Below, one piece after another: positions 36,826 through 59,441 of a DNA stretch of 64,000 nucleotides. A model generated the notes under the pieces. The model made no database searches. It had not been told where the DNA came from and was given only the letters and a program-made list of their open reading frames with translations. The stretch is from Eledone cirrhosa (taxonomy: Eukaryota). Where the stretch lies: assembly GCA_964016885.1 (NCBI GenBank), contig OZ024740.1, positions 82,026,001 through 82,090,000 on the forward strand, written 5' to 3'. How positions within the stretch are numbered: position 1 is the stretch's first letter; each line of letters opens with the position of its first letter. A program made the position numbers and the translations under genes.

Positions 36826-37137
36826 ATATATATATATATATATAAAAACAAATAACGAAACGAAATTAAATTTCGTTTCGTTTGTAACTCACTTTTGTAT
36901 GACTGACGCTTAAACAATTAAGTTAAAAATGTACATCTACATATGCATACTGAAATACTAGTGTGCATATGAATACACACACGTATACATATGTAGGTGT
37001 AACAAGTCTTTCACTGGTTGCTTTACTGTGAGCAACCCAGCTATTCTGTATGTAAACACACAGACAAACCGGTTTTTAGAGTCATACTGGTTTACGAGGG
37101 AACACCTTCCCTCTATTCTCCAGAAAGCCAGACAAGG

Positions 37138-37182
37138 AATATTGAACTAGTTTCGTTGTTGTTACAACTCATCAGCAATATT
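37138..37182 (-). ncRNA. Canonical minimal type I HHR; second copy at 37605-37649
   Basis: aatattg-CTGATGA-gttgt aaca acaac-GAAA-ctag-TT-caatatt. Confidence 0.9.
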
Positions 37183-37227
37183 TACCTATCTACAGGCCCT
37201 TCTGGAGAATTGTAAAAGCACATATCG

Positions 37228-37275
37228 TTATATGATTTTTCTATGAAAATTAGTAGTGGGCAGACCAATTTGCAT
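37228..37275 (-). promoter_or_regulatory. Putative snRNA-type promoter module (octamer, PSE-like segment, TATA)
   Basis: ATGCAAAT with TATAA starting 43 nt later; same spacing at 47920-47969 (+) and, at 42 nt, at 40941-40988 (-). Confidence 0.5.
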
Positions 37276-38217
37276 AGAGTGTGAGTACGCACCGGTTCAG
37301 CGGAGACGATAAAAACAAATAACGAAACGAAATTAAATTTCGTTTCGTTTGTAACTCACTTTTGTATGACTGACGCTTAAACAATTAAGTTAAAAATGTA
37401 CATCTACATATGCATACTGAAATACTAGTGTGCATATGAATACACACACGTATACATATATAGGTGTAACAAGTCTTTCACTGGTTGCTTTACTGTGAGC
37501 AACCCAGCTATTCTGTATGTAAACACACAGACAAACCGGTTCTTAGAGTCATACTGGTTTACGAGGGAACACCTTCCCTCTATTCTCCAGAAAGCCAGAC
37601 AAGGAATATTGAACTAGTTTCGTTGTTGTTACAACTCATCAGCAATATTTACCTATCTACCGGCCCTTCTGGAGAATTGTAAAAGCACATATCGTTATAT
37701 GCTTTTCCTATGAAAATTAGTAGTGGGCAGACCAATTTGCATAGAGTGTGAGTACGCACCGGTTCAGCGGAGACGATAAAAACAAATAACGAAACGAAAT
37801 TAAATTTCGTTTCGTTTGTAACTCACTTTTGTATGACTGACGCTTAAACAATTAAGTTAAAAATGTACATCTACATATGCATACTGAAATACTAGTGTGC
37901 ATATGAATACACACACGTATACATATGTAGGTGTAACAAGTCTTTCACTGGTTGCTTTACTGTGAGCAACCCAGCTATTCCTTGTCTGGCTTTCTGGAGA
38001 ATAGAGGGAAGGTGTTCCCTCGTAAACCAGTATGACTCTAAAAACCGGTTTGTCTGTGTGTTTACATACAGAATAGCTGGGTTGCTCACAGTAAAGCAAC
38101 CAGTGAAAGACTTGTTACACCTACATATGTATACGTGTGTGTATTCATATGCACACTAGTATTTCAGTAAGCATATGTAGATGTACATTTTTAACTTAAT
38201 TGTATATATATATATAT

Positions 38218-38367
38218 ACGATATTAATAAATGGAAACTATATTTATAAAACCATATTTATTTCATTATACATATTTCAGGGATTCCAAATTAAATTATG
38301 GTATGCCTACATCAGTTGTAAAAATGTTTATTTGTTGTATCCCAACAATTTTAAATAGAACTTTTGC

Positions 38368-38370
<3 letters not shown>
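38218..38370 (-). mobile_element. PLE-type terminus with degenerate HHR; second copy at about 46622-46725
   Basis: The two copies align; cores read ctgatgt and ccgatga, followed by GAAA-tatgta-TA. Confidence 0.65.
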
Positions 38371-38409
<39 letters not shown>

Positions 38410-38411
<2 letters not shown>

Positions 38412-40599
38412 TTATGAAAATAACAGATTAAAGTTTAAGCAAAGAATCGCTGCTTTCACCCTTAACGGGATCTTCTGAAACTAACAAAGTCAATTTGTAA
38501 ACGCAGAAGTGGATATTTCAAAAAACGTTGCAACCGGAGGAAGACAGGAAGACGATACTTTCGTTCGTGGTAACGTTCGCTGGCAAAGAACGGGAAAAAA
38601 CGAATATAATACGTCATTAATAGGAGCGGTGAAAAACAATTACGCGCAAAGACAGAACCACGTTTATGGTATAAAAGCGGTCGTAGACTAATGTTCTCCT
38701 AGGTGGTTCATAGAGACGTTCTCTGGTAATGAACGAAGATAATACGTCATATGTGGAGCGTGGAGAACAATAGCACGCAAAGACAAAACCACGTAAATGG
38801 TATAACAGATGTCGTAGACTAAAATTCTAACTAGGAGACCGAATGATTCTCCGCTACAGAGTTAAGAACAAAGTAAATAAATACATTAGTCTTTGCGTGC
38901 TATTGTTCTCCACGCTCCACATATGACGTATTATCTTCGTTCATTGCCAGAGAACGTCTCTATGAACCACCTAAGAGAACATTAGTCTACGATCTCTTTT
39001 ATACCATAAACGTGGTTCTGTCTTTGCGCGTAATTGTTTTTCACAGCTCCTATTAATGACGTATAATATTCATTTTTTCCCGTTCTTTGCCAGCGAACGT
39101 TTCCACGAACCAAAGTATCGTCTTCCTGTCTTCCTCCGGTTACAATGTTTTTTGAAATATCCACTTCTGCGTTTAAAGATTGACTTTGTTAGTTTCAGAA
39201 GATCCCGTTAAGGGTGAAAGCAGCGGTTCTTTGCTTAACCTTTAATCTGTTATTTTAATAAATATTTGCTCTACAGTTCTTATATATTTGATATATATTT
39301 ATCCTTATCAAGCCCTTTTTGGATTTTAATCTTCAAATTTATTATTATTACATATATATATATAGTTTCAGATGTTAAGGTCCTGTAATGATAATGCTGT
39401 GATACATATTTCAATGACGACAGTAGCCACACACTTCGGTGTGCCCAGTGCCGTGACATCATCAGACAGCTTCTTACATAATAAGGTTATGTTTCCCAGG
39501 CAATCCAAATTGACATGGGAACGGACAAAGCGTGTGCTCCTGAATTCTTCGCCCGTTCCCCTCTGAGTCCAAATTCACCCCCACCGGTCTGCGCAGGCGC
39601 AAGTCCGAAGGAAGTTGATCGTCAACTACCACAAAGTTCTACGAAACTCGCCTATATATATATACACACACATATATATATATATATATACCTATATATA
39701 TATATATATATATTTATTAAATAACAGATTAAAGTTTAAGCAAAGTATCGCTGCTTTCACCCTTAACGGGATCTTCTGAAACTAACAAAGTCAATCTGTA
39801 AACGAAGAACTGGATATTTCAAAAAACGTTGCAACTGGAGGAAGACAGGAAGACGATACTTTGGTTCGTGGAAACGTTCGCTGGCTGAGAACGGGAAAAA
39901 ACGAATATGATACGTCATTAATAGGAGCGGTGAAAAACAATTACGCGCAAAGACAGAACCACGTTTATGGTATAAAAGAGGTCGTAGACTAATGTTCTCT
40001 TAGGTGTTGGATAGAGACGTTCTCTGGCAATGAACGAAAAATACGAAGATAATACGTCATATGTGGAGCGTGGAGAACAATAGCACGCAAAGACAAAACC
40101 ACGTAAATGGTATAGCAGAAGTCGTAGATTAAATTCGAACTAGGAGACCGAATGAATCTCCGCTACGGAGTTCAGAACAAAGTAAATAAATACAATACGG
40201 GAAGTAATAGAAATAATAAATACATACACGCAAACAAAACCGTACATACACAAGCACACGCAAAAACTTACCATAGGTAAACAAAACCACGCACATATAA
40301 ATATTTAATGACGTATTATATTCTTTTTTTCCCGTTCTTAGCCAGCGAACGTTTCCACGAACCAAAGTATCATCTTCCTGTCTTCCTCCGGTTGCAACGT
40401 TTTTTGAAATATCCAGTTCTGCCTTTACAGAGTGACTTTGTTAGTTTCAGAAGATCCCGTTAAGGGTGAAAGCAGCGATTCTTTGCTTAACCTTTAATCT
40501 GTTATTTAATAAATATTTGCTCTACGGTTCTTATATATTTGATATATATTTATCCTTATCGAGCCCTCTTTGGATTTTAGTCTTCAAATTTATTATTAT

Positions 40600-40600
<1 letters not shown>
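38410..40600. mobile_element. Two fold-backs of PLE terminal family G (38410-39350 and 39713-40600) with a family F arm between them
   Basis: Arms match the 3' end of the PLE at 41824-43432; HHR agttt-CAGAAGA-tccc gttaa gggt-GAAA-gca..tgc-TT-aa(a/c)ct at 39191-39241 and 40443-40493, with minus-strand mirrors; also a fragment at 32745-32824. Confidence 0.9.
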
Positions 40601-40658
<58 letters not shown>

Positions 40659-40660
<2 letters not shown>

Positions 40661-41208
40661 TATGTATACGTACATACATATATGTATATGGACGTACAGT
40701 AGTATGTATATATATATACATACATGCACACATTTATATATGTACGTATGGATTTACCGATCATTTATTATAATGCTCGGTGTGTTTGTAAACAAACATC
40801 CCGAATTAACCCGTACAGTGTTTAGCAACCATCGTTGCCCTTTCGTTCAACACTGACACAGGAACGATGTACTAGTTTCAAGCCTATTAGCTATCGTCAG
40901 CACCGTATACCTTCCTGCTAAATGATTGAACGTCTGAATGTATATACTTTCCTTATGCATATTAACGACTGAGTAGCTTACTTTGCATATCGAGTGAGTT
41001 AATCGGCCGGGCGCACCGAAAACGATAAACGGAAAAAAATGAAACGAAATATCATTTCTCACGCTTAGTACGGCTGTTACTTAAATATGAGTATGTATAC
41101 GTACATACATATATGTATACGGACGTACAGTAGAATGTATACATATATATACATACATGCACACATATATATATATATGTACGTATGGATTTACCGAACA
41201 TTTATTAT
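40659..41208 (-). mobile_element. 431-bp terminally redundant retrozyme-like unit; HHR at 40864-40906
   Basis: Direct repeat at 40659-40772 and 41090-41208; acggtg-CTGACGA-tagct aata ggctt-GAAA-ctag-TA-catcgt; shares blocks with the 467-bp unit. Confidence 0.85.
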
Positions 41209-41224
41209 ATATATATATATATAT

Positions 41225-41824
41225 ATACATTTAAAGTATATGATAAACACGAAATGTGTTTACATTGCAACAGACAAAGTTAGCTATTAATGAAATAAAC
41301 TAATAAAAGTGAATACAATTTGTCTGTCTCGATACAGGTCAATAAAGACAAGCTTATATTGGCAATGGCCATGATTCCTGGACATATTTAAATTTCAAAA
41401 TTCAAACCTGTTCTGTAGACGAATTTGAACCTCGAAACCCAAATAAGTTTCGCAACGGTGGAATGTGAATTGAAAAATAAAGAGAATCGAAATGGAAATA
41501 GAAATAAAATAGTGAAATATCCAAATCTTCTGTGCTTATCAACAGGAATCCAGTAAAATTAGTCTATCTCACATCAAAAATGTTGCAGGTCTGACTACAC
41601 GTGCGTAGGCAGGCCAAAACTAGCTGTCCCACATTCACGGTGCTAGAAATAACAGCCGCTTATGCAGGATTAAGGATCAGCTCTTACAATAAAGGAGCTA
41701 TACATTATATTATATTTTGAGAATAAACTCTCAGTCGTTTACAATAATTAAGCTCCAGGAAGGGGCTCTTCCGAGCAGTTAAATACATTTAAAGTATATG
41801 ATAAACACGAAATGTGTTTACATT
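41225..41824 (-). mobile_element. 558-bp terminally redundant retrozyme-like unit; extended HHR at 41373-41550
   Basis: 42-bp direct repeat at 41225-41266 and 41783-41824; gattcctg-TTGATAA-gca..tgc-GAAAC-long stem III-GTC-caggaatc. Confidence 0.75.
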
Positions 41825-43429
41825 TGCTCTACGGTTCTTATATATTTGATATATATCTATCCTTTCTATACGGCTTTCTATACGGGTAATACAACCCATT
41901 CAATAAATTGAGGGTAACTATTAATATTTCTTACTCTACGACTCCTAACATTGCACATAACATCACAGCTTCCAATTTAGATAAACTACCTAGCCGTAGG
42001 AACACGTGCAACCCTCTAGTTAGTAGGAATCGGGCTGATTGCCCCCTATCCGGGAAATGCCTCTCTAGTAACATTGTCTACAAATGTAAGGTTGTAACAC
42101 CCACGTCCCGTAGGGCCTACATAGGGTTAACCGCCAATAGTTTCAAGCAGCGTCTTTACATGCATACCCATTCTTTTCGTTACCCTCTAAGAAGGAATAT
42201 GACGTCACTTTCAGCTTATATCTGGAGTCTAAAAGACAACCACACCCAATATAAGTTACACTGGGAGATCCTAGCTAGGGCTAGATCGTATAACGGAAAT
42301 AAATGACCATGTGACCTCTGCGACGCTGAACCCTGGAAATACTCTACGCCACAGACCACACCTTAAACAAAAAATCTGAGGCAATTTCGGCTTGTAAACA
42401 TAAATTTCACAAAACTTTCCTGTATTACAGCCCCACGTTATACACTAACGGATAGTACGATCCATACGTGGATATTTTACGTCTTGATGTGGGAGCTAAG
42501 TATATATTTTGTTTATTCCTTTACTTATTTGCATAGATAAGTATATATTACCCGTATGTTTTGTGAAAGTACGTATACCTTCTCGTACGTTTATTTGATT
42601 GTAGTTTTTTATATATTCTGGTACATAGGTTTTGGCTATGTGTATACGGCAGTTTTGCGTCTGTGTGAGTATGCAGGTTCGTACGTATGGTGGGTGTGTG
42701 TATATGTGTATTTCTGGTTTTAGTTGACTTATGTCTCCGAACATTCGCGTATTTATATGTAGGTATGTGTGTGCGTTTGTTATATACGCATGTATTTATT
42801 TAAATACGTTTATATAATTATTTATTTGTATACACGCATACACACACACATATTTATATGTTTGTGGTTTTGTATACCTATGGTAAGGTTTTGCGTATGC
42901 TTGTGTATGTACGTATTTGTTTGCGTGTATGTATTTATTTATTTCTATTACTTCGGTATGTATTTACTTTGTTCTTAACTCTGTAGTGGAGATTCATTTG
43001 GTCTCCTAGTTAGAATTTTAGTCTACGACTTCTGCTATTCCATTTACGTGGTTTTGTCTTTGCGTGCTATTGTTCTCCACGCTCCACATTGACGTATTAT
43101 CCTCGTGTTTTCGTTCATTGCCAGAGAACGTCTCTATGCACCACCTAAGAGAACATTAGTCTACGACCTCTTTTATACCATAAACGTGGTTCTGTCTTTG
43201 CGCGGAATTGTTTTTCACCGCTCCTATTAATGACATATTATTCGTTTTTTCCTCTTCTTTGCCAGCGAACGTTCCCACGAACCAAAGTATCGTCTTCCTG
43301 TCTTCCTCCGGTTGCAACGTTTTTTGAAATATCCACTTCTGCGTTTACAGATTCACTTTGTTAGTTTCAGAAGATGCCGTTAAGGGTGAAAGCAGCGATT
43401 CTTTGCTTAAACTTTAATCTGTTATTTTA

Positions 43430-43432
<3 letters not shown>
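41824..43432 (+). mobile_element. Internally deleted family G PLE: GIY-YIG remnant and pLTR with HHR (43363-43413)
   Basis: ISYSTTPNIAHNI..CPLSGKCLSSNIVYKCKV..AYIGLTANSFKQRLYMH..WEILARARSY (41908-42306); begins with a short direct copy of the sequence that follows the HHR in other family G copies. Confidence 0.9.
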
Positions 43433-43491
<59 letters not shown>

Positions 43492-43520
43492 ACATCGTCG
43501 TACATAACAACTAAAATTAT

Positions 43521-43629
43521 ATAATTGTTTCTATTTTAGGCACAAGGCCAGCAATTAACCAGTACAGTACTGGTACTTTATTTTATTGACCCCGTAAGGA
43601 TGAAAGGCAAAGTTAACCTCGGCAGGATT
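43521..43629 (-). mobile_element. 5'-truncated SINE
   Basis: 3' half of the 6439 SINE family. Confidence 0.85.
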
Positions 43630-44218
43630 ATATAATGATATTATTTCATTGGCTGTATAATCAAAAGGACGGCATTTGTTTCTCAAATTGCAAACTGAAT
43701 TGAAACCTGGAAATATTTTGTCAAATTGATTCTAAATTAATCCAACTGACTACATTGTAAACTCTCATTAAAATATAAACTAACTATATATCTTATCATT
43801 CCGTATATTATGGCCCATTAATAGTTACTATAAACATATAATATTCTCTTTAATAAGAACTTTTAAACGAAAGCTATTGAAAATGAGTCAAATTTTTTAC
43901 AGATAAATTTTGTGAAATGAAATTTATTGAGTTATTAATTAAATACTTAATACTATAATAACCAATTATATATCAACGTATATAAAATGATAATTGTGAG
44001 CAATGTGCATTGAATACAATTTGTTTAATTGCGTAGTATTGAAAGCCAGCCAATTCACATACTGAATGAGGATTCATTGTGGCAAATATAATTATAGATG
44101 AGACAATTAAATTTTCACAGTCAACAATCTTCAATTACATATAGAACATTTTTGGAAATGAACAAAGCATTGTCTGTAATTTTTGTCAATGTTTCTCGGA
44201 AATCAATAATCTTTTTCA

Positions 44219-44576
44219 TAATAATTGTTTCTACTTTTAGGCACAAGGCCAGCAATTACTCAGTGCAATACTGGTACTTTATTTTATCGACCCTGTAAGG
44301 ATGAAAGGCAAAGTCAACCTCGGCGGGATTTGAACTCAGATTGTAAAGGGACGTAACTATGCTGGAATGTATGGTGTCCGACCCTCTACCGATAATAATT
44401 GTTTCTACTTTAGGCACAAGGCCAGCAATTAACCAGTGCATTACTGGTACTTTATTTTATCGACCCCGTAAGGATGAAAGGCAAAGTCAACCTCGGCGGG
44501 ATGTGAACTCAGATTGTAAAGGGACGTAACTATGCTGGAAAGCATGGCGTCCGACCCTCTACCGATACTGCCAACC
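44219..44576 (-). mobile_element. Two tandem SINE copies
   Basis: Copies at 44219-44391 and 44392-44576. Confidence 0.9.
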
Positions 44577-44683
44577 ACAATGACTATATAACTGTATACA
44601 TACATATGTACTCATACATACATGTATATATATATACATATATAAATATATATATAAATAGTATATATATAAACACACGCACG

Positions 44684-44727
<44 letters not shown>

Positions 44728-45176
44728 TATATATATACATATATATATGTATATATATATAAACATATATGTATATATATATATATCTTCCACTCACTCA
44801 CTCTCTGTTTCACCCCTTCTCATTTCCTTCGTTCGTTAGTAGTGAGATTCTTTCTTTCTCACATCTCATTCACGTCGGACGGTCTGTTTTCTGTCCGCTC
44901 ATGAAATTCACCCAGATAGGCAGATCGGATAAACATCATGTTGCTTGCTTTTTTCCTACCTTCGGTTTGCTTTTCCTTCTACGTTGTTTACTTGTCTCAC
45001 TCGCTTTACGCGATTCACTTGTCCCAATAGCTTATTTTAGTTATTGCTCGCACCAACCTGAGGTATATGATTTTTAATGCGATGAAATACCAATGATGGT
45101 TGGCAAATCACTGATGAGGGACTAATTTTATAATATGTAACCCATGTGCAACCACGCAGTTTTCCTCTTTCTTCCC

Positions 45177-45225
<49 letters not shown>

Positions 45226-45230
<5 letters not shown>

Positions 45231-45919
45231 ATATTGAGAAACACACAGATACATGCGGACACATACATATACATGAATATATCCACATCCATCTTTGAGT
45301 TAATAGTGCCAACCTTAACCGATGTTGCTCTATGAATAACTGACAAACCAATCCGAATGGATTAGACTGAACCAGTATCAGAGGTAAAGGTACATTATGA
45401 AGAGAGAAGAAACATTTAGATATAATTAGTAATAAGATGTATCATACCTAAACTGCTTCTAGATTCCTCGACTACGTAGTTTCGTGGCATAATCAAAAAC
45501 AATACATCATAGAGATATAGAGCCTTTGTGAGATCTGCCGACTTATCAAGAGGATACCTCATTTTACTAGCTTCAAAGAACACCTATTCTACGGCCTCGA
45601 TATAAATACCCCCTCCGCCTCCGTGGTATTTTTTTCAGGGTTATAAGGGGCTTAGCTATGTTTCTTGAACGTCGTATCACGTGATTGACTCCCCCTCCGC
45701 CTTTTCGGATTCTATCTCACATCTTATAGACGTTCTCTTTGATGCTAGTAAAATGAGGTATCCTCTTGATAAGTCGGCAGACTCGCAAAGGCTCTATATC
45801 TCTATGATGTATTGTTTTTGATTATGCCACGAAACTACGTAGTCGAGGAATCTAGAAGCAGTTTAGGTATGATACATCTTATTACTAATTATATCTAAAT
45901 GTTTCTTCTCTTTTCATAA

Positions 45920-45920
<1 letters not shown>
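45226..45920. mobile_element. Fold-back PLE-type terminus with U3-A8 HHR at 45761-45849 (+) and 45465-45554 (-)
   Basis: Arms about 45394-45571 and 45744-45920; tcctc-TTGATAA-gtcggca..tgccac-GAAA-ctacgtag-TC-gagga. Confidence 0.88.
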
Positions 45921-46010
<90 letters not shown>

Positions 46011-46574
46011 GTTTATATCTGCATATATATATATAAACAACAAACCGGGCGATGTGCGAGCAACTTAAGGTAAGAACATTCAAGACCACAGCGATAAGAG
46101 AACTTAAGTTCAAGAGCGTGTGGGCGATCGAAAAGACACACGTCTGACGCCAGCGAGATGTAAGTGAGAAAAGGACTATTACAGGGTCAGGCGAGGGAGA
46201 CAATGAGGTGGCGAGCACAGAGAGGATGAGTGAAAGTGAGAGGGAGAAAAGGAGAGGAAGAAAGTGAGGTAGGATTAGATAGTGACCAAATAGGTAGGTA
46301 GAAAGAGAGAGAATACTAGTAGAGAGGATGAGTGAAAGTGAGATGTAGAAAGGGAGAGGAAGAAAGATGCGTGAGAGAAGATAGTAACGAAATAGATAGG
46401 TAGAAGGAGAGAGAAGACTGGTCACCACGAAAGATGATAAAATATATGGAGAATAGGATTGGCCGTGTAGTTACTATTTAAGGTAGCTTAAAATTGAGTG
46501 AGAATAAGAAAAAAGTAAGAACGGGGGGCAATTTTCCTCATCAGTTGTCTACTGGGGTCTCGGATATTTCCACG

Positions 46575-46624
<50 letters not shown>

Positions 46625-46859
46625 GATATTAACAAATGGAAACTATATTTATAAAACCATATTTATTTCATTATACATATTTCAAGGACACCAAGTTAAA
46701 TTATGGTGTGCTTTCATCGGACAAAATATAATATAGATCAGTTTTATAAATACATATTGACATACCCTTCAAAAATGCAACCATTACTGTTGGAAGCTTC
46801 CGGATAGTGGAGTTGTTTACTTATATTATTATTAGTATTGGATATTTTTATTTTTAAAA

Positions 46860-47330
46860 TAAGCCGTTGGGTTACTAAACCAGCAATCCTCCCAAGCATC
46901 CTTGGAGTGGTGGATGATTGTGGACACCCTACCGGATCAAAGACAAAATCCATCATAAGGCGGAGAAACTCAAGAGAGTCAACGCCCATCTAGTAAACTA
47001 TTTTTTTATTGTGGAACGTGCGACCCTTAGTCTTTATTAATAAATATGTCTAACAGATGGTCACTTTGATATAAAACCTGCGACTTCGTTTGTACCCAAT
47101 GATGTAGACTAGTTCTTCTTTTTCGTTAAATGCATTCGATGAGTGGGATTGCCTTTCCTCACATAAAAAAGATTCAAGGACCAGCATCGCTTATATGTGA
47201 TATTTGTTGGCGATACTTGGCATTGCTGACTATAGGCAAGTCCCTCTCTAGACTAAAAGCCACGTCCTTGATGGTAATGCTTAACTATCAAGTGAGGGCT
47301 TGACTAGTAATGGATTGCAGCCTTCAGGTT
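46860..47330 (+). repeat. Old dispersed repeat, possibly a LINE 5' UTR; related copy at about 62940-63480
   Basis: Collinear shared blocks agtcaacg.ccatc, gatataaaacctgcg, gatgt.ga, agtgggattg. Confidence 0.45.
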
Positions 47331-47361
47331 TTGTAGTATCAAACTAATATATATATATATA

Positions 47362-48165
47362 TAAAAGCAATAAGATTTTGCTTCAAGCATAGCTTTATAC
47401 AAAAATGTATAGAAATTTCGTATTTCTAAAGAAATACGGTTTTAGGAAGCCGTAGCTATGCAAACACCGTGGGCTAACGCCCTCTGGTGGTGTCCAGCCG
47501 AAGCAAGAGGGACAACAGTCTATGCATTTCATGCTTGACTGGCCTTCTTCAGGACGGTCCCTCCCACCGCTTGCTACTGCTGGACTTGAAAACAGTCGAG
47601 AATATATAGTTTTCTCGTCTGTGTAAATGAGGTGATTAATCTCATTTGCATATGAAGCTGCATAAGTTGGTTCAACATATAATAGAAAGGAAATAAGATT
47701 TCGCTTCAAGCATGGCTTTATACAAAATGTATAGACATTTCGTATTTCTTCTGGACACCACCAGAGGGCGTTAGCCCCCGGTGTTTGCATAGCTACGGCT
47801 TCCTAACACCATGTTTCTTTAGAAATACGAAATTTCTATACATTTTTGTATAAATCTATGCTTGAAGCGAAATCTCAATTCTTTTCTATTATAAGTCGAG
47901 TAAACTTATGCAACTTCATATGCAAATGAGATTAATCACCTCATTTACACAGGTGAGAAAACTATATATTCTCGACTGTTTTGAAGTCCAGCAGTAGCAA
48001 GCGGTTGGAAGGACCGCCTTGAAGAAGGCCAGTCAAGCCTGAAATGCATAGACGGTTGTCCCCCTTGCTTCTGCAGGACACTACTAGAGGGCGTTAGGCC
48101 CCAGTGTTTGCATAGCTACGGCTTCCTAAAACCGTGTTTCTTTAGAAATACGTAATTTCTATAGA
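47362..48165. mobile_element. 323-bp retrozyme-like unit inserted as a palindrome, each arm longer than one unit
   Basis: Left arm 47362-47750 repeats at 47369 and 47692; right arm 47751-48165 is inverted; HHR consensus accgtc-CTGAAGA-aggc..gcct-GAAA-tgca-TA-gacggt at 47515-47558 (-) and 48013-48056 (+). Confidence 0.9.
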
Positions 48166-48174
48166 TATTTATAA

Positions 48175-48206
<32 letters not shown>

Positions 48207-48980
48207 TTTTAATATAGATGAGATTCTACAGGACTAGAACTGTTTCATTCATTAGAAATCATCAGGAATCTGGGTATCAAAAAATAAATATGGTATTTAT
48301 AGGTCTCTACAAGTGGTAGGAGAGGGTGGGGAGTGGGATGGGTGCAGGTCATTGGTTGATAGAAAAGGGAATTCATTAAAAGCTAATTCTACAAAGCTAT
48401 AGTTAATTTTTATTTTTATTTATATTTATTTATGTTTTTAGAGTAACAAAGGCAGACAGGATTCTATAAACAGGTTCCGGATGGCATACCATTCCTTGTC
48501 AATAAGTTTCTCTTAAGCTAACAGATGTCTATAAAATCAGTGGGGGGTCAGTCATGCTCGATAGAATTAAAGAAAAGGGAGATGCTTTAAAAGCTAAAGT
48601 CATTAAGGTTCTACTAAGTGACAAAGGTCTAGAGAATTCTGCAGACAGATTCAAAATACTGAGTGCATATCTTACTATTATCTTCGAACTTCTCTTAAAC
48701 TAATCAACAATATGCCAAAATCAACAGACACATTCACAAAAAAACAAAAAAACAAAAAACCAAAAAAACAGAAAAACAAAAAAACACACATAAAAAACAA
48801 AAAAACACACATACTCACACACTTACGCGCAACCATAAACACACACACAAACACATATACTCACATAAAAATACACACACATATATAAAAAATATATAAA
48901 TATGTATTCATGTACACACACATACATACACACATACATACATACATACATATAGAATACATATACACATATACATACGC

Positions 48981-49027
<47 letters not shown>

Positions 49028-49132
49028 TATACATATATATACATACATATATATATACATATACAAACATATATACATATATATACATACAAATATACAT
49101 ATACACACATACACACACACACATATATATAC

Positions 49133-49225
<93 letters not shown>

Positions 49226-49394
49226 GATACACACACACATACACATACATACACACACACACACATATATATACACAAATAAATACACTCACACGCATAC
49301 AAACAAACACGAGTATACATATGTATAAATATACACACATACACACACACACACATATATACGTATATATATATATACATATACATATATATAT

Positions 49395-49455
<61 letters not shown>

Positions 49456-49674
49456 GATACACACACACACATACACATACATACACACACACACACATAT
49501 ATATACACAAATAAATACACTCACACGCATACAAACAAACACGAGTATACATATGTATAAATATCTATACACACACACATACACACATATATATATATAT
49601 ATACACACGCATACACATATATATATATATATATACATATATATATACACATATATATACATACATATACATAC

Positions 49675-49706
<32 letters not shown>

Positions 49707-49726
49707 CTATACACACACATATACAA

Positions 49727-49770
<44 letters not shown>

Positions 49771-49926
49771 CCATACATACACAAAACATACACATACATA
49801 CACAGACCTATACATAAATATACACATATATATACAGACATATAACGCACATATACACACACATATACATACACATATATACATATATATATACATATAC
49901 ATACATATATATATATACCTATATAC

Positions 49927-49961
<35 letters not shown>

Positions 49962-50090
49962 CATATATACACATACATACATATACACATACACATACAT
50001 ATATATACACATATACACACACACGCGCGCATACACACATACACACACCGACACACAAAATATATATACACACACACTCTCTATCTCATG

Positions 50091-50175
<85 letters not shown>

Positions 50176-50245
50176 GCACACACATACATTCATACATACA
50201 CACACACACATACATATACATATATACAAATGCACACTTATACAC

Positions 50246-50330
<85 letters not shown>

Positions 50331-50371
50331 CACACATACATACATACACACATACATACATATACATGCAT

Positions 50372-50410
<39 letters not shown>

Positions 50411-50419
50411 CACATACAC

Positions 50420-50474
<55 letters not shown>

Positions 50475-50597
50475 CATATACACATATATATACACACATA
50501 TACACACACATACATACACACATACACATACATATACATAAACATACACACACACATACACACGTATACATACATACATACATACACATACATACGC

Positions 50598-50705
<108 letters not shown>

Positions 50706-50844
50706 ATACATATACACAAACACATACATACATATACATACATAAATATACACACATAAAACACATATACACACAAACATATATATATACACACATATAT
50801 ATATACATAAAAATACATATACACACACATACATATATACATAC

Positions 50845-50903
<59 letters not shown>

Positions 50904-51045
50904 CATATACACACACATACACATATACATACATACATACATATACACAAACACATACATACATATACCTACATAAATATACACACATAAAACACATATA
51001 CACACAAACATATATATATACACATACATATACACACACATACAT

Positions 51046-51094
<49 letters not shown>

Positions 51095-51312
51095 TACACA
51101 TATACACATATACAAACAAATATATACACAAACAAGTAAATAGGTACTCAATAAATATACGCATATACACAGGCACTTAAAGACACCTCTACAGGCAGAA
51201 AATGTAGATACGAAAGAGGTACTCACATGACCATAGTGGCCGTATTTCAGGTTGAGGAGGGGTGGGAGTAGGGTGGGGAGGAGGTAAAGGGGCCAATAGG
51301 GGGAGGTCGTTT

Positions 51313-53550
51313 CTAGCCATCGGGCTTTAACACTGGCTTAAAGTGTTTGAATGTTGCAAAGTTCTTGTGCATGCAGTTCGGGCAGTGTTCAGAGAGTTTG
51401 TTCAGTAGCGGGCCCTTGGCGAATAAAATTTCGTAGCTCTCTGAAATACAAAGGTCGCAGCCCTTGTGTCCTCCGTTGTAAGAGCGCGCTTTCTGGAGTA
51501 TTTTCCAATTAAGCGTGAAGGGGGTGGAGTTCCTTTTGAGGTCCCAAACGTAGGAGGCGAGTGTTGTTTGATTAGATTTATCCGGTCTTCTGAAGGAGTG
51601 GGTATGGGCATACCAGCGGGTCTTAAAGGTGTTGGAGGTTATGCCGATGTAAGTTTTTTTGCAATCCTCGGTGCCCGAGATGACATCGCATTTGTATACG
51701 ATGTCATTTGTGAGGCATTTGTTTTCTAGTGGGCATGCTTCCTTATTAAGGCAATTACATAGAGCCCCAGTCCGGGGATTGGTTTCGGAGGTGGTTGGCT
51801 TATTTAGTTTAGAGTTGTGGTTGGCTATATTCCTAGCTAGGTTAGGTGTGGTGGAGTAAGACAGTCTTATAGTGTTCTTATTAAAGATGGTGTAGTACCT
51901 ATGTTGTATGGGGAAGTGTAATTTCAGTAAAGTGAAGAAAATCCTAGCTATCGGAGTAGATACCTCTCTATTGAAGGGAGGGTTGTACCAGCTAATCTGC
52001 CTATGTCTATTCCTCCTCTGCAATTTTGCGGTGGTTTCTAGGTAAGTTATCTTATCTTTAAATCCGCTACGGGCTAGGGCGTCATTGTAGTAGGAGGCAG
52101 ATGCATTAAAAATATCTTTGTTGGCGGAGAGGCCAGATATTCTAATAGAGACGCTTTTTACTAGGTTATCAGTAATGTTTTGGGGGTGGTTTGAATTAAC
52201 ATTAATATATTTAAGGGACTCGTTAGGTTTGTGGTACGGGTAATAGAGGGAAGTATCTAGGTCGAGAGTGACATCTAAAAAGTTGGCCCTAGTCAAATTA
52301 GAATCTATAGTTATACTAAATCCTAGATTAGAGAAGAAAGAGCTTAAGTTTTTCCGAAACCCATCGGTGGTTCTGGGGCTAACCTTATGCAGGGCGAAGA
52401 GGCCGTCGTCTCGGTATAAACCTCCAGTTAGGCCGGTAAAGAGGTTCTTCAGGTTATGTAGGATGTACAGGCCCACAAGGTCGCTAATTTCAGCCGAGTC
52501 ACTCGCCCCCATGCTAACGTCAAATGGGGTCTGAGATTTCTTGTTGATCCAGTAAGATCCATCGTGTTATAGAAAGGTCTTACGAGCGTGGAGGATAACA
52601 ACTTGCTCGGCATCGGTAATGGTGGTAAAATTCCTGGCAAAGTTAATTGCGTCCTTCAGGAGGGGCTCCGAGATAGAGGCATAGTAGTTTTCTATGTCGA
52701 GTTGCAGGAAGCGAGTGTGGTGTTTATCAGGTAATTCTTGGAACCATGATATTGCCTCAGATGTTCTACTCCAGAGTGGAAGTGGTGAGGCTGCCCGCAA
52801 TAATGGTAGAACTCTATCCAGGATCTTCTTACTGATAGAGCCGATGTCAGAACGAGTGGGGTTGATAAGTCTGACTGATGGTTTGTTGAGGAAATTTCCC
52901 TTATGGTCCTTCAGGGTAAAGTGCGGGGTCTTTACCCTTAAAAGTTCGGTTCGGTCATGTAATTTAAGGGACTTGGCGATTTCTTTTCCGGCCGCGTTTG
53001 TCTCAGTCAGCGCCCTCTCTATTACCTTTTTGTAGGTGGTCGTGATGGTATTTTTTGCCAGCTTATTGTAGGTCTGTGGGTCTACCTCATAAACGTTTTT
53101 GGTTTTATCGGAGGAGACATAAAGATTAGGGGATTTATTTATATTCCGTAATTCGGCATTTAAGTAGGCCTGGAATGGTGTTGTGGCTCTACGGAATTTA
53201 ATATCCTTGATCATCTTGAAGAGGTCTTCCTCAAATGGTTGGAGTAGGCTGTTGGTGGGTGGTGTCTTATTCGTTTTGAAGCCGAACTTCTCATCATTGG
53301 TAGATGCTACATCAGGGTTGTCGAGGAAGAAGGCCCTCCATCTAATTCGCTTGATGAACTCGTCGGTACGTCTGATGAGTGTTTTTAAGTATAGTTTCCT
53401 TGGAGGGATAGGGATGTTCTTCAAGGAAATATCAAGGTCGAGTTTGGTCAGCATGGTTTCTTGATGATGGTTATAAGGGGCACAGAGAGTGCTAAAATGT
53501 ACGTTATTCCGGGTTGAATCGGAGGTAACCACAGTAAGTAAGGTACTCAA
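51313..53550 (-). pseudogene. PLE polyprotein (RT + GIY-YIG), 745 codons, single in-frame TAA at 52567-52569
   Basis: SLKNIPIP, WRAFF, DKT, TLKDHK..RLINP, LDIENYYASI, FDVSMG..DSAE, LYRDDG, FLDVTL, SNHP, WYNPPF, CNC..CPL..CL..IVYKC..YIG..FKTRWYAH, CDLC..E, LLNK..CMH. The two listed ORFs are in frame (KTFL*HDGSYW). Confidence 0.95.
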
Positions 53551-54350
53551 TACATAGCAGAGTATAACAGTTTTAATATAGATGAGATTCTACAGGACTA
53601 GAACTGTTTCATTCATTAGAAATCATCAGGAATCTGGGTATCAAAAAATAAATATGGTATTTATAGTTCTCTACAAGTGGTAGGAGAGGGTGGGGAGTGG
53701 GATGGGTGCAGGTCATTGGTTGATAGAAAAGGGAATTCATTAAAAGCTAATTCTACAAAGCTATAGTTAATTTTTATTTTTATTTATATTTATTTATGTT
53801 TTTAGAGTAACAAAGGCAGACAGGATTCTATAAACAGGTTCCGGATGGCATACCATTCCTTGTCAATAAGTTTCTCTTAAGCTAACAGATGTCTATAAAA
53901 TCAGTGGGGGGTCAGTCATGCTCGATAGAATTAAAGAAAAGGGAGATGCTTTAAAAGCTAAAGTCATTAAGGTTCTACTAAGTGACAAAGGTCTAGAGAA
54001 TTCTGCAGACAGATTCAAAATACTGAGTGCATATCTTACTATTATCTTCGAACTTCTCTTAAACTAATCAACAATATGCCAAAATCAACAGACACATTCA
54101 CAAACCCCCCCCCCAAAATAAACCCCAAAAAACAGAAAAACAAAAAAACACACATAAAAAATAAAAAAACACACATACTCACTCACACACTTACGCGCAA
54201 CCATAAACACACACACAAACACATATACTCACATAAAAACACACACACATATATAAAAAATATATAAATATATATTCATGTACACACACATACATACACA
54301 CATACATACATACATACATATATAATACATATACACATATACATACGCAC

Positions 54351-54397
<47 letters not shown>

Positions 54398-54466
54398 TAT
54401 ACATATATATACATACATATATATATACATATACAAACATATATACATATATATACATACAAATAT

Positions 54467-54523
54467 CGGTGCCCCAGCATGGCCTCAGCCGGATGGCTGA
54501 AACAGGTAAAAGAGTAAAAGAGT
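54467..54523 (+). mobile_element. Short 3' tail of an RTE-like LINE or partner SINE inserted in one pLTR copy
   Basis: ccagcatggcctcagccggatggctgaaacaggtaaaagagtaaaagag; absent from the other two pLTR copies. Confidence 0.65.
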
Positions 54524-54555
54524 ATACACACATACACACACACACACATATATAC

Positions 54556-54652
<97 letters not shown>

Positions 54653-54811
54653 GATACACACACACATACACATACATACACACACACACACATATATATA
54701 CACAAATAAATACACTCACACGCATACAAACAAACACGAGTATACATATGTATAAATATACACACATACACACACACACACATATATACGTATATATATA
54801 TATACATATAC

Positions 54812-54926
<115 letters not shown>

Positions 54927-55139
54927 GATACACACACACATACACATACATACACACACACACATATATATACACAAATAAATACACTCACACGCATACA
55001 AACAAACACGAGTATACATATGTATAAATATCTATACACACACACATACACACATATATATATATACACACACATACACATATATATATATATATATATA
55101 CATATATATATACACATATATATACATACATATACATAC

Positions 55140-55195
<56 letters not shown>

Positions 55196-55197
55196 AT

Positions 55198-56430
55198 ACT
55201 AGGATTTAGTATAACTATAGATTCTAATTTGACTAGGGCCAACCTCTTAGATGTCACTCTCGACCTAGATACTTCCCTCTATTACCCGTACCACAAACCT
55301 AACGAGTCCCTTAAATATATTAATGTTAATTCAAACCACCCACAAAACATTACTGATAACCTAGTAAAAAGCGTCTCTATTAGAATATCTGGCCTCTCCG
55401 CCAACAAAGATATTTTTAATGCATCTGCCTCCTACTACAATGACGCCCTAGCCCGTAGCGGATTTAAAGATAAGATAACTTACCTAGAAACCACCGCAAA
55501 ATTGCAGAGGAGGAATAGACATAGGCAGATTAGCTGGTACAACCCTCCCTTCAATAGAGAGGTATCTACTCCGATAGCTAGGATTTTCTTCACTTTACTG
55601 AAATTACACTTCCCCATACAACATAGGTACTACACCATCTTTAATAAGAACACTATAAGACTGTCTTACTCCACCACACCTAACCTAGCTAGGAATATAG
55701 CCAACCACAACTCTAAACTAAATAAGCCAACCACCTCCGAAACCAATCCCCGGACTGGGGCTCTATGTAATTGCCTTAATAAGGAAGCATGCCCACTAGA
55801 AAACAAATGCCTCACAAATGACATCGTATACAAATGCGATGTCATCTCGGGCACCGAGGATTGCAAAAAAACTTACATCGGCATGACCTCCAACACCTTT
55901 AAGACCCGCTGGTATGCCCATACCCACTCCTTCAGAAGACCGGATAAATCTAATCAAACAACACTCGCCTCCTACGTTTGGGACCTCAAAAGGAACTCCA
56001 CCCCCTTCACGCTTAATTGGAAAATACTCCAGAAAGCGCGCTCTTACAACGGAGGACACAAGGGCTGCGACCTTTGTATTTCAGAGAGCTACGAAATTTT
56101 ATTCGCCAAGGGCCCGCTACTGAACAAACTCTCTGAACACTGCCCGAACTGCATGCACAAGAACTTTGCAACATTCAAACACTTTAAGCCAGTGTTAAAG
56201 CCCGATGGCTAGAAACGACCTCCCCCTATTGGCCCCTTTACCTCCTCCCCACCCTACTCCCACCCCTCCTCAACCTGAAATACGGCCACTATGGTCATGT
56301 GAGTACCTCTTTCGTATCTACATTTTCTGCCTGTAGAGGTGTCTTTATGTGCCTGTGTATATGCGTATATTTATTGGGTACCTATTTACTTGTTTGTGTA
56401 TATATTTGTTTGTATATGTGTATATGTGTA

Positions 56431-56479
<49 letters not shown>

Positions 56480-56621
56480 ATGTATGTGTGTGTATATGTA
56501 TGTGTATATATATATGTTTGTGTGTATATGTGTTTTATGTGTGTATATTTATGTAGGTATATGTATGTATGTGTTTGTGTATATGTATGTATGTATGTAT
56601 ATGTGTATGTGTGTGTATATG

Positions 56622-56666
<45 letters not shown>

Positions 56667-56819
56667 GTATATATATATATGTATATATATATATATGTGT
56701 GTGTATATGTATTTTTATGTATATATATATGTGTGTATATATATATGTTTGTGTGTATATGTGTTTTATGTGTGTATATTTATGTATGTATATGTATGTA
56801 TGTGTTTGTGTATATGTAT

Positions 56820-56893
<74 letters not shown>

Positions 56894-57065
56894 GTATATT
56901 TATATATATATATATATATGTATGTGCGTATGTATGTGTATTGTATGTATGTATGTATACGTGTGTATGTGTGTGTGTATGTTTATGTATGATATGTATG
57001 TGTAGTGTGTGTATGTATGTGTGTGTATATGTGTGTATATATATGTGTATATGTATGTGTATATA

Positions 57066-57109
<44 letters not shown>

Positions 57110-57125
57110 GTGTATGTGTATGTGT

Positions 57126-57158
<33 letters not shown>

Positions 57159-57218
57159 ATGCATGTATATGTATGTATGTGTGTATGTATGTATGTGTGT
57201 ATATATATATATATGTAT

Positions 57219-57284
<66 letters not shown>

Positions 57285-57374
57285 GTGTATAAGTGTGCAT
57301 TTGTATATATGTATATGTATGTGTGTGTGTGTATGTATGAATGTATGTGTGTGCGTGTGTGTGTGTGTGTATAT

Positions 57375-57422
<48 letters not shown>

Positions 57423-57566
57423 ATATATATATATGTGCATGAGATAGAGAGTGTGTGTGTATATATATTTTGTGTGTCGGTGTGTGTATGTGTGTATGCG
57501 CGCGTGTGTGTGTATATGTGTATATATATGTATGTGTATGTGTATATGTATGTATGTGTATATATG

Positions 57567-57601
<35 letters not shown>

Positions 57602-57755
57602 GTATATATGTATATATATATATGTATGTATATGTATATATATATGTATATATGTGTATGTATATGTGTGTGTATATGTGCGTTATATGTCTGTATATAT
57701 ATGTGTATATTTATGTATAGGTCTGTGTATGTATGTGTATGTTTTGTGTATGTAT

Positions 57756-57801
<46 letters not shown>

Positions 57802-57821
57802 TTGTATATGTGTGTGTATAG

Positions 57822-57853
<32 letters not shown>

Positions 57854-58296
57854 GTATGTATATGTATGTATATATATGTGTATATATATATGTATATATA
57901 TATATATATATGTGTATGCGTGTGTATATATATATATATATGTGTGTATGTGTGTGTGTATAGATATTTATACATATGTATACTCGTGTTTGTTTGTATG
58001 CGTGTGAGTGTATTTATTTGTGTATATATATGTGTGTGTGTGTGTATGTATGTGTATGTGTGTGTGTGTATCTGTGTGTGTGTATATATATTATATATAT
58101 ATATATATTTTATACTATATTGTGTGTATATATATATGTATATGTATATATATATATACGTATATATGTGTGTGTGTGTGTATGTGTGTATATTTATACA
58201 TATGTATACTCGTGTTTGTTTGTATGCGTGTGAGTGTATTTATTTGTGTATATATATGTGTGTGTGTGTGTATGTATGTGTATGTGTGTGTGTATC

Positions 58297-58387
<91 letters not shown>

Positions 58388-58492
58388 GTATATATGTGTG
58401 TGTGTGTGTATGTGTGTATATGTATATTTGTATGTATATATATGTATATATGTTTGTATATGTATATATATATGTATGTATATATATGTATA

Positions 58493-58535
<43 letters not shown>

Positions 58536-59383
58536 GTGCGTATGTATATGTGTATATGTATTATATATGTATGTATGTATGTATGTGTGTATGTATGTGT
58601 GTGTACATGAATATATATTTATATATTTTTTATATATGTGTGTGTGTTTTTATGTGAGTATATGTGTTTGTGTGTGTGTTTATGGTTGCGCGTAAGTGTG
58701 TGAGTGAGTATGTGTGTTTTTTTGTTTTTTATGTGTGTTTTTTTGTTTTTCTGTTTTTTTGGTTTTTTGTTTTTTTGTTTTTTTGTGAATGTGTCTGTTG
58801 ATTTTGGCATATTGTTGATTAGTTTAAGAGAAGTTCGAAGATAATAGTAAGATATGCACTCAGTATTTTGAATCTGTCTGCAGAATTCTCTAGACCTTTG
58901 TCACTTAGTAGAACCTTAATGACTTTAGCTTTTAAAGAATCTCCCTTTTCTTTAATTCTATCGAGCATGACTGACCCCCCACTGATTTTATAGACATCTG
59001 TTAGCTTAAGAGAAACTTATTGACAAGGAATGGTATGCCATCCGGAACCTGTTTATAGAATTCTGTCTGCCTTTGTTACTCTAAAAACATAAATAAATAT
59101 AAATAAAAATAAAAATTAACTATAGCTTTGTAGAATTAGCTTTTAATGAATTCCCTTTTCTATCAACCAATGACCTGCACCCATCCCACTCCCCACCCTC
59201 TCCTACCACTTGTAGAGACCTATAAATACCATATTTATTTTTTGATACCCAGATTCCTGATGATTTCTAATGAATGAAACAGTTCTAGTCCTGTAGAATC
59301 TCATCTATATTAAAACTGTTATAATCTGCTATGTATTGAGTACCTTACTTACTGTGGTTACCTCCGATTCAACCCGGAATAAC

Positions 59384-59385
<2 letters not shown>
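55198..59385 (+). mobile_element. 5'-truncated inverted copy of the same PLE
   Basis: 55229-56212 differs from the matching part of the minus-strand ORF at 2 residues; 3' region mirrors 48205-51312. Confidence 0.95.
59251..59301 (+). ncRNA. Canonical type I HHR of the young PLE
   Basis: agattc-CTGATGA-tttc taat gaat-GAA-acag ttctagtc ctgt-A-gaatct, with a GUA cleavage triplet. Confidence 0.9.

Positions 59386-59441
<56 letters not shown>

Follow-up and report, generated by a model that had tools for sequence, protein, structure and literature searches.

Hammerhead retrozymes of Eledone cirrhosa carry elements resembling host snRNA gene promoters

Metazoan non-long-terminal-repeat (non-LTR) retrozymes are described as short, AT-rich, non-coding tandem repeats of about 170-400 bp with type I hammerhead ribozymes and self-paired predicted circles, found alongside Penelope-like elements. 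Their circular RNAs (circRNAs), reported from mussel, coral and axolotl, are among the most abundant in their hosts, and Penelope helpers have been proposed; no promoter is named in the available sections of that report (PMC7229834). A 2020 review, in its accessible part, finds metazoan retrozymes seemingly promoterless and ascribes their transcription to read-through (PMC7761336). According to the available part of a further source (PMC2220036), newt satellite 2 possesses a small nuclear RNA (snRNA) promoter used by RNA polymerase II (Pol II) (Coats, Zhang and Epstein, 1994), and the hammerhead repeat of the schistosome Sm-alpha satellite has its own internal RNA polymerase III (Pol III) promoter (Ferbeyre 1998, cited therein). 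Here we describe three retrozyme units in a 64,000-nucleotide window of the Eledone cirrhosa genome (assembly GCA_964016885.1, contig OZ024740.1, positions 82,026,001 to 82,090,000) and their relatives across the 3.0 Gb assembly that was searched. Elements of host snRNA promoters recur in about 50,000 pattern matches, which fall into nine families, and the units very probably contain some internal promoter.

Like newt satellite 2, the units combine a hammerhead repeat with an apparent internal promoter of snRNA type, and they most likely work in the same way. The newt system is one vertebrate family established by experiment, whereas nine families, a TATA box, two promoter versions and a hybrid layout are deduced here from sequence. 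The newt promoter is said to hold an octamer, and that of Sm-alpha is reportedly of tRNA type, whereas the elements of the Eledone units are of the upstream snRNA type. Penelope pseudo-LTRs, in the available portion of their description (bioRxiv 10.1101/2021.04.23.441226), share with the units a hammerhead near a TATA box, partial tandems, an inverted arm, a one-sided tail and (TA)n targets. They flank an open reading frame (ORF) for reverse transcriptase and GIY-YIG domains, however, and in this genome neither the octamer nor the 26-27 nt core is present in them; the extension on one side measures about 70 nt in the units versus 30-40 nt in the Penelope-like elements of that description. The plant retrozyme NbRZ1 also has its own promoter (PMC9695139, PMC12029980, PMC11722881), but this LTR element has a ribozyme of type III and another class of helper, and the parts of those papers that were covered do not mention an snRNA-type promoter. 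The Dolichopoda paper contains no text on a promoter or octamer, PMC10886601 offered nothing that bears on the subject, and no literature on retrozymes of cephalopods, or on promoters of snRNA type in those of invertebrates, was found in a search that had most subscription journals and Repbase outside its reach. The first-pass annotation of this stretch took such a system to be undescribed in molluscs; this stands for the promoter, but mussel retrozyme circRNAs were already on record in the covered part of PMC7229834.

Retrozyme units in the window

The window holds members of three families, with the following features.

36842..37980, minus strand: tandem array of the family A retrozyme (2.4 copies of 467 bp, 99% identical), 3' end adjoining (TA)n
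37735..37742, minus strand: octamer ATGCAAAT of the upstream family A promoter
37722..37726, minus strand: PSE-like (proximal sequence element-like) core CCACT of the same promoter, 27 nt before TATA, a weak match to the host matrix
37693..37699, minus strand: TATA-like box of the same promoter, predicted start (+1) about 29-30 nt downstream
37605..37649, minus strand: type I hammerhead of family A, its helix III a palindrome (ACUAGU) and its cut predicted after GUU
37268..37275, minus strand: octamer of the second family A promoter, with core at 37255-37259 and TATA at 37226-37232
37138..37182, minus strand: second family A type I hammerhead, which together with the first would release a 467-nt monomer
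37976..38206, plus strand: inverted 5'-truncated arm of family A, a Penelope-type insertion signature
40651..41209, minus strand: family B retrozyme, 1.3 x 431 bp, with a single ribozyme
40981..40988, minus strand: family B octamer variant ATGCAAAG
40968..40972, minus strand: family B core TCAGT, identical to the core of host Pol II snRNA genes and 26 nt upstream of TATA at 40940-40946 (p=1e-4)
40864..40906, minus strand: family B type I hammerhead, predicted cut after GUA
47362..47750, minus strand: family C copy (323-bp unit), octamer 47644-47651, TCACC 47631-47635, TATA 47602-47608
47515-47558, minus strand: hammerhead of this copy, helix II damaged
47751..48173, plus strand: inverted family C copy, octamer 47920-47927, TCACC 47936-47940, TATA 47963-47969
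48013-48056, plus strand: hammerhead of the inverted copy, core altered to UUGAAGA

When re-measured in the window, the units, octamers, TATA motifs and hammerhead cores of the first-pass annotation were found at the positions and spacings it gave. The octamer precedes TATA by 43, 42 and 43 nt and the CUGANGA core by 100, 88 and 99 nt in the 467-, 431- and 323-bp units, respectively. The octamer attributed to the 431-bp unit is present, but ATGCAAAG is a variant of the window copy, and other listed copies have ATGCAAAT. Similarly, the third spacer that had been quoted is real but comes from the plus-strand 323-bp copy with the UUGAAGA core, the minus copy being the one with the broken helix II; the 323-bp insertion is an inverted pair with the ribozyme damaged in both copies. 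This unit had been called unlike the other two, which is mostly so, apart from a weak and inconsistent likeness to the 431-bp family downstream of the ribozyme (z 5.7 for one subfamily, -0.7 for another). Among the window units, only the 467-bp array places two same-strand ribozymes behind one promoter. The helix III palindrome is short in all three (ACUAGU in the 467- and 431-bp units, AUGCAU in the 323-bp unit).

By sequence, the units qualify as non-LTR retrozymes. A type I hammerhead with predicted cleavage occurs once per unit, and units of 467, 430, 484 and 310 bp lie head to tail, with a GC content of 36-37% in A, B and B2. The longest sense ATG ORFs comprise 19, 68 and 30 amino acids in A, B and K, consistent with non-coding repeats. 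Self-pairing is high, 67-69% of A, B and B2 monomers being paired as predicted circles (values without a shuffle baseline), and the predicted circles of A and B have a similar branched layout. With lengths of up to 484 bp, the units extend somewhat beyond the published size range. The Rfam model HH9 matched the 467-bp ribozymes with E=3e-6, under its gathering score, and no hammerhead match to the 431- or 323-bp units was among 150 listed of 180 Rfam matches. Rfam microRNA matches over microsatellites and inverted repeats, also under gathering scores, were rejected as artefacts. A reverse-orientation octamer, followed closely by a TATA-like run, occurs at 42527-42534, downstream of a Penelope-like GIY-YIG ORF (41890-42306).

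Promoter elements of host genes and units

The host promoter code was derived from genes found by Rfam models, with one copy taken per distinct locus or array and polymerase labels assigned from established knowledge of the gene classes and from their T-run or 3'-box ends. The Pol II set comprised 16 genes (5 U1, 3 U2, 2 U4 and 6 U5); two U6 and seven of eight U6atac matches (promoterless and pseudogene-like), six U6 array copies (upstream repeat insertion) and one U5 were left out. We found YCAGY at -55 to -58 and AATTA 32-34 nt before this core in every gene of the set, together with a TATA-like box that follows the core by 25-28 nt and lies near -30; in carrying such boxes the host Pol II snRNA genes are unlike those of vertebrates. 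A U12 gene fetched after the matrix was built fits the same code (CCAGC at -58, TATA at -31), and TCAT lies near the core position in two U11 and three U3 genes. Seven of eight Pol III type 3 genes (three U6 loci, U6atac, MRP and two tRNA-Sec genes) carry the U6-type element TATGCAAATKAG, or ATG(C/G)(A/T)AAT(T/G)AG, at -76 to -79 and 46-48 nt before TATA, while in the eighth, RNase P, TCAGT precedes TATA by 32 nt and the gene ends in T10. Host Pol III genes terminate in T5-T10, and the host 3' box resembles AAAATCAGA. Several Pol II and Pol III genes share a TTACCTCCCTTG-like distal element, with measured positions of about -270 to -290. The upstream element has been swapped for a 173-bp repeat in 6 of 26 fetched copies of the large U6 array; this repeat also occurs in the window at 44218-44567.

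The units share with host U6- and U1-type promoters the TATGCAAATKAG element, the YCAGY core and a TATA box about 30 nt before the predicted start. Their general anatomy is TATGCAAAT-NAG, a YCA core 16 nt on, TATA 26-27 nt past the core and the ribozyme 45-57 nt past TATA. A TATGCAAATKAG-like element lies 40-45 nt before TATA in families A-E, outside the Pol III spacing of 46-48 nt, and 47-48 nt before TATA in G and I, at U6 spacing, where a YCAG core precedes TATA by 26 nt. Families J and K lack the octamer or any TATGCAAATKAG-like element and read AATT, 29 nt, YCAGT, TATA 26-27 nt from the core start and then the ribozyme, an arrangement of the host U1 type. AATTA was not found 32-34 nt before the core in A-E, G or I. 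Whatever the upstream element, YCA stands 26-27 nt before TATA in all 11 representatives of nine families, as against none of six Penelope-type leaders with TATA (two have it at 28 nt); the other four of the 10 leaders had no TATA. The core-TATA spacing is thus constant across families, and the upstream element is exchangeable.

The core is an exact YCAGY in B, D, E, I, J and K, TCAGA in G and YCACY in A and C. Scored with the matrix of the 16 host genes, the core region matched in B (p from 1e-4 to 0.004), D (1e-4 to 0.003) and G (0.03). This matrix gave scores of -2.3 to 6.5 for five U6-type genes versus 7.1-23.6 for left-out Pol II genes. The first-pass annotation had proposed that the spacer sits where a PSE would: a PSE-like core of the host Pol II type is indeed present at host spacing, but among the window units the match is individually significant only for the 431-bp unit. 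Two other parts of the proposal did not hold. The octamer, assigned to an snRNA-type promoter, occurs at -70 to -80 in none of the 16 host Pol II genes and instead serves Pol III genes of the U6 type as their proximal element; and its distance to TATA, said to be fixed, ranges from 40 to 48 nt across families, with no octamer in J and K. Because the octamer is a Pol III proximal element in this host, the unit promoter is a hybrid, which in A-E joins a U6-type octamer element to Pol II-type core spacing, and the units fall outside strict membership of either host class. The broader proposal of an internal snRNA-type promoter is supported by the match to host elements.

An octamer with TATA might instead form an mRNA-type Pol II promoter that works without SNAPc, in the manner of the CCAAT plus TATA of Penelope pseudo-LTRs, YCA being inherited by descent. 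Octamer-plus-TATA promoters are known in immunoglobulin and H2B genes, A, C and E match the core only weakly, and Penelope leaders also set an activator box and TATA before a ribozyme; the window pseudo-LTR carries CCAAT and TATAAATA 36 nt before its own hammerhead, with the octamer absent. However, J and K keep YCAGT and TATA at host snRNA spacing though they have no octamer, and between families the octamer shifts by 5-6 nt while the core-TATA distance stays fixed at 26-27 nt. We regard an mRNA-type promoter as very unlikely.

Families across the genome

Genome-wide, an octamer followed after 76-96 nt by a hammerhead core occurs 32,489 times, compared with 114 for a reversed-pattern control. 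By eye, 98 of 100 listed matches belong to five families, A (467 bp), B (430-484 bp), C (323 bp), D and E; the other two, without TATA and core, were taken as chance. Family A yielded 2,206 first-look candidates, its scored full-length matches being 97-100% identical, and family D has its octamer-plus-TCAGY module in three copies at 33-nt spacing. A wider octamer-to-core window gave 2,218 matches versus one in the control and added family G and the single copies H and I. The bulk of these matches was rejected as one repeat without TATA or ribozyme fold, LINE (long interspersed element) ORF-like by eye. As for background, random genome sequence (400 kb) contains ATGCAAA at a rate of 1.0e-4 per base, and among 34 random octamers with no hammerhead core following, TATA at +40-45 and YCASY at +16 were each seen in four. 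Family G is about 345 bp, older, and has 2,147 first-look candidates. With their YCAG core and U6-like octamer-TATA spacing, G and I are candidates for use of a different polymerase.

Family K is a very young 310-bp tandem hammerhead repeat without an octamer, and its relatives make up family J. The J/K pattern occurs before a ribozyme core 17,686 times genome-wide, compared with eight in the control. A helix-closing ATTCTC...GAGAAT is common to K and A. Outside promoter and ribozyme the families barely align, with some signal between A and B, B and D, and B and C. T-1, G+10 and CA+17/18 are invariant across A-E, though they lay outside the search requirement. The families are probably distant relatives rather than independent captures.

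The genome is very rich in ribozymes. In 1 Mb of random genome (100 stretches), 72 hammerhead-like motifs in 25 clusters were found, versus four in a shuffle; eight belong to the octamer families, four to family K, and the remaining 60, judged by appearance, are mainly of Penelope type. Three clusters and one single match are closely followed by a Penelope ORF in the same orientation.

Transcription and reinsertion

We consider it fairly probable that these elements are non-LTR retrozymes with a host-like snRNA promoter, self-transcribed probably by Pol II via SNAPc, whose monomers are circularized and reinserted, likely by Penelope enzymes. SNAPc would sit on the core and a POU/Oct factor on the octamer, and Pol II would initiate some 30 nt past TATA, where an A lies at the base of the extended helix I. 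Meeting no 3' box, transcription would enter the next unit, and ribozymes with palindromic helix III would cut, probably as dimers; such palindromes are linked to dimer cleavage in newt and Penelope ribozymes in the available parts of two papers (PMC6155905, PMC7761336). Because the monomer would span cut to cut, it would contain the whole upstream promoter of the next unit. Once circularized, it could be reverse transcribed round the circle, which would restore the promoter to its place before the ribozyme and solve the upstream promoter loss suffered by retroposed snRNA copies.

For the window families Pol II is the likelier polymerase, by our estimate with appreciable though incomplete confidence. 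In B, B2 and C the predicted +1 falls on an A preceded by C, and in A it misses such a position by one base; the site lies at the base of the extended helix I. Before the next ribozyme there are two T5 runs in A, a T6 in B and a T7 in B2; G has a T6 just after its ribozyme and K only T4 runs. The best 3'-box scores in seven units were 0.6-6.3, versus 11-20.7 in 15 host genes, and the absence of this box is what read-through into the next unit requires. Alternatively, a real promoter could be of the U6-like Pol III type 3, with monomers arising through leaky read-through of T runs. Of the eight host Pol III type 3 genes, seven show TATGCAAATKAG plus TATA, RNase P with its T10 end also uses TCAGT, G and I have U6 spacing, and K carries only T4 runs. 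Polymerase choice is set by the PSE sequence in flies and by the TATA box in vertebrates, where TATA selects Pol III (PMC1761439, available part). In the host, though, TATA is found in Pol II snRNA genes as well; moreover, A-E have octamer-TATA spacings of 40-45 rather than 46-48 nt, their core-TATA distance of 26-27 nt is that of Pol II genes and not the 32 nt of RNase P, and T5-T7 runs lie inside A, B and B2, with T6 in G. Pol III transcription appears unlikely to us. The earlier argument that T runs favor Pol II is sustained in its outcome, the runs reaching T5-T7 rather than the T4-T5 first noted, but is tempered by K with only T4 and by the U6 spacing of G and I. An expectation that families with U6 spacing would be free of T runs failed with the T6 of G.

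Insertion structure points to Penelope elements as helpers. Among 24 family A loci, an inverted arm occurs in 14 and (TA)n adjoins one or both ends in 20; the arms end at unit positions of about 135 or 204, one per end in most inverted insertions. Partial tandems, inverted arms and a one-sided tail are hallmarks of Penelope-like elements in the covered text of bioRxiv 10.1101/2021.04.23.441226, so the Penelope involvement suggested earlier is supported, and reinsertion by Penelope-element enzymes is likely. In family A the octamer stands at unit position 238 and the predicted cut falls near 369, so that 833-902 nt (1.8-1.9 units) are required to contain a promoter plus two ribozymes. Given the two fixed 3' ends, an insertion would need about 1.8-1.9 units for monomer release, and the claim that every reinsertion longer than one unit is self-expressing was too generous. 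Shorter copies could be transcribed but would release no monomer; productive insertions would be only those of about that length or more. An example of the likely helper class lies beside family C:

48207..59389: Penelope-like element complex, with ORF 51313-53589 (minus strand) and a hammerhead at 53629

Its ORF contains one in-frame TAA (52567-52569), and the GIY-YIG Pfam match of the element is weak (E=0.009). The inverted arms of the complex are long, and its TA/CA microsatellites are expanded. Of the several Penelope-like families in the genome, none is tied to any retrozyme family.

A number of observations weigh against transcription from a host-like snRNA promoter. The host-matrix match is not significant in A (p 0.09-0.17), C (0.08-0.18), E (0.11-0.24) and I (0.06). 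The 11 representatives exclude the single copy H, one of two TATA registers was chosen for D and E, and since the families are probably related, the representatives are not independent. In the host the octamer element belongs to Pol III genes, J and K carry AATTT or AATTG 33 nt before the core and not the host AATTA, and by eye no host distal TTACCTCCCTTG was seen in the units. The hybrid layout is absent from host U1, U2, U3, U4, U5, U11, U12, U6, U6atac, MRP, RNase P and tRNA-Sec genes, the classes to which the comparison was limited. The J/K search pattern was composed after J and K had been inspected. The wider-window excess was mostly one ribozyme-less repeat, so the reversed-pattern controls carry no correction for repeat families. 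In G and I the predicted +1 is, by our count, a G. Finally, the octamer-spacer region folds as a hairpin, with z of -3.0 in A and -4.6 in I, although above -2 in six others.

This last point raises another explanation, namely that the motifs are conserved RNA elements (helper-binding or circle-folding hairpins) or relics, and that transcription is read-through from host promoters, as the accessible part of PMC7761336 has it for retrozymes. The octamer lies in the 5' arm of the hairpin in most families, and the A and B circles are similarly branched. Within families A, B and C (24, 19 and 6 variants), the promoter varies less than the leader, in copies partly selected for the octamer, but the whole octamer-TATA stretch varies little and not the motifs alone. 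In family G, 24 aligned copies were 76-84% identical to the query with fairly even decay, a comparison that has no power. Contigs from four runs of unknown kind had 26 variable sites over 461 bases; one of these, in a single contig, fell within TATA, and the octamer and ribozyme core had none. Being weak and non-independent, these data were not used. On the other hand, the octamer does not vary, whereas the arm opposite it differs and mispairs, the J/K hairpin covers TATA instead with motif spacing unchanged, and the motifs match the DNA of host promoters in their sequence and order as well as in strand and spacing. We give RNA elements or relics as the sole explanation little chance of being right, although a dual DNA and RNA constraint on the octamer region is plausible.

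If the preferred reading of a host-like snRNA promoter is correct, self-transcription from internal promoters would run counter to the published view, in the available text of PMC7761336, that metazoan retrozymes are promoterless. Because the promoter elements give base-level predictions (start site, polymerase and mutable motifs), retrozyme transcription becomes directly testable. It is conceivable, though on present evidence we would hold it only tentatively, that animal non-LTR retrozymes form a SINE-like (short interspersed element-like), SNAPc-run class, which captured an snRNA promoter, ancestral and common to newt satellite 2 and this genome, and keeps it inside its RNA by ribozyme cutting and circularization, its families having formed Pol II/Pol III hybrids unlike any host gene examined and possibly differing in polymerase. 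The promoter reading, if true, would move the 1994 newt result from an oddity to a possible rule and would show how a retroposon can retain an upstream promoter.

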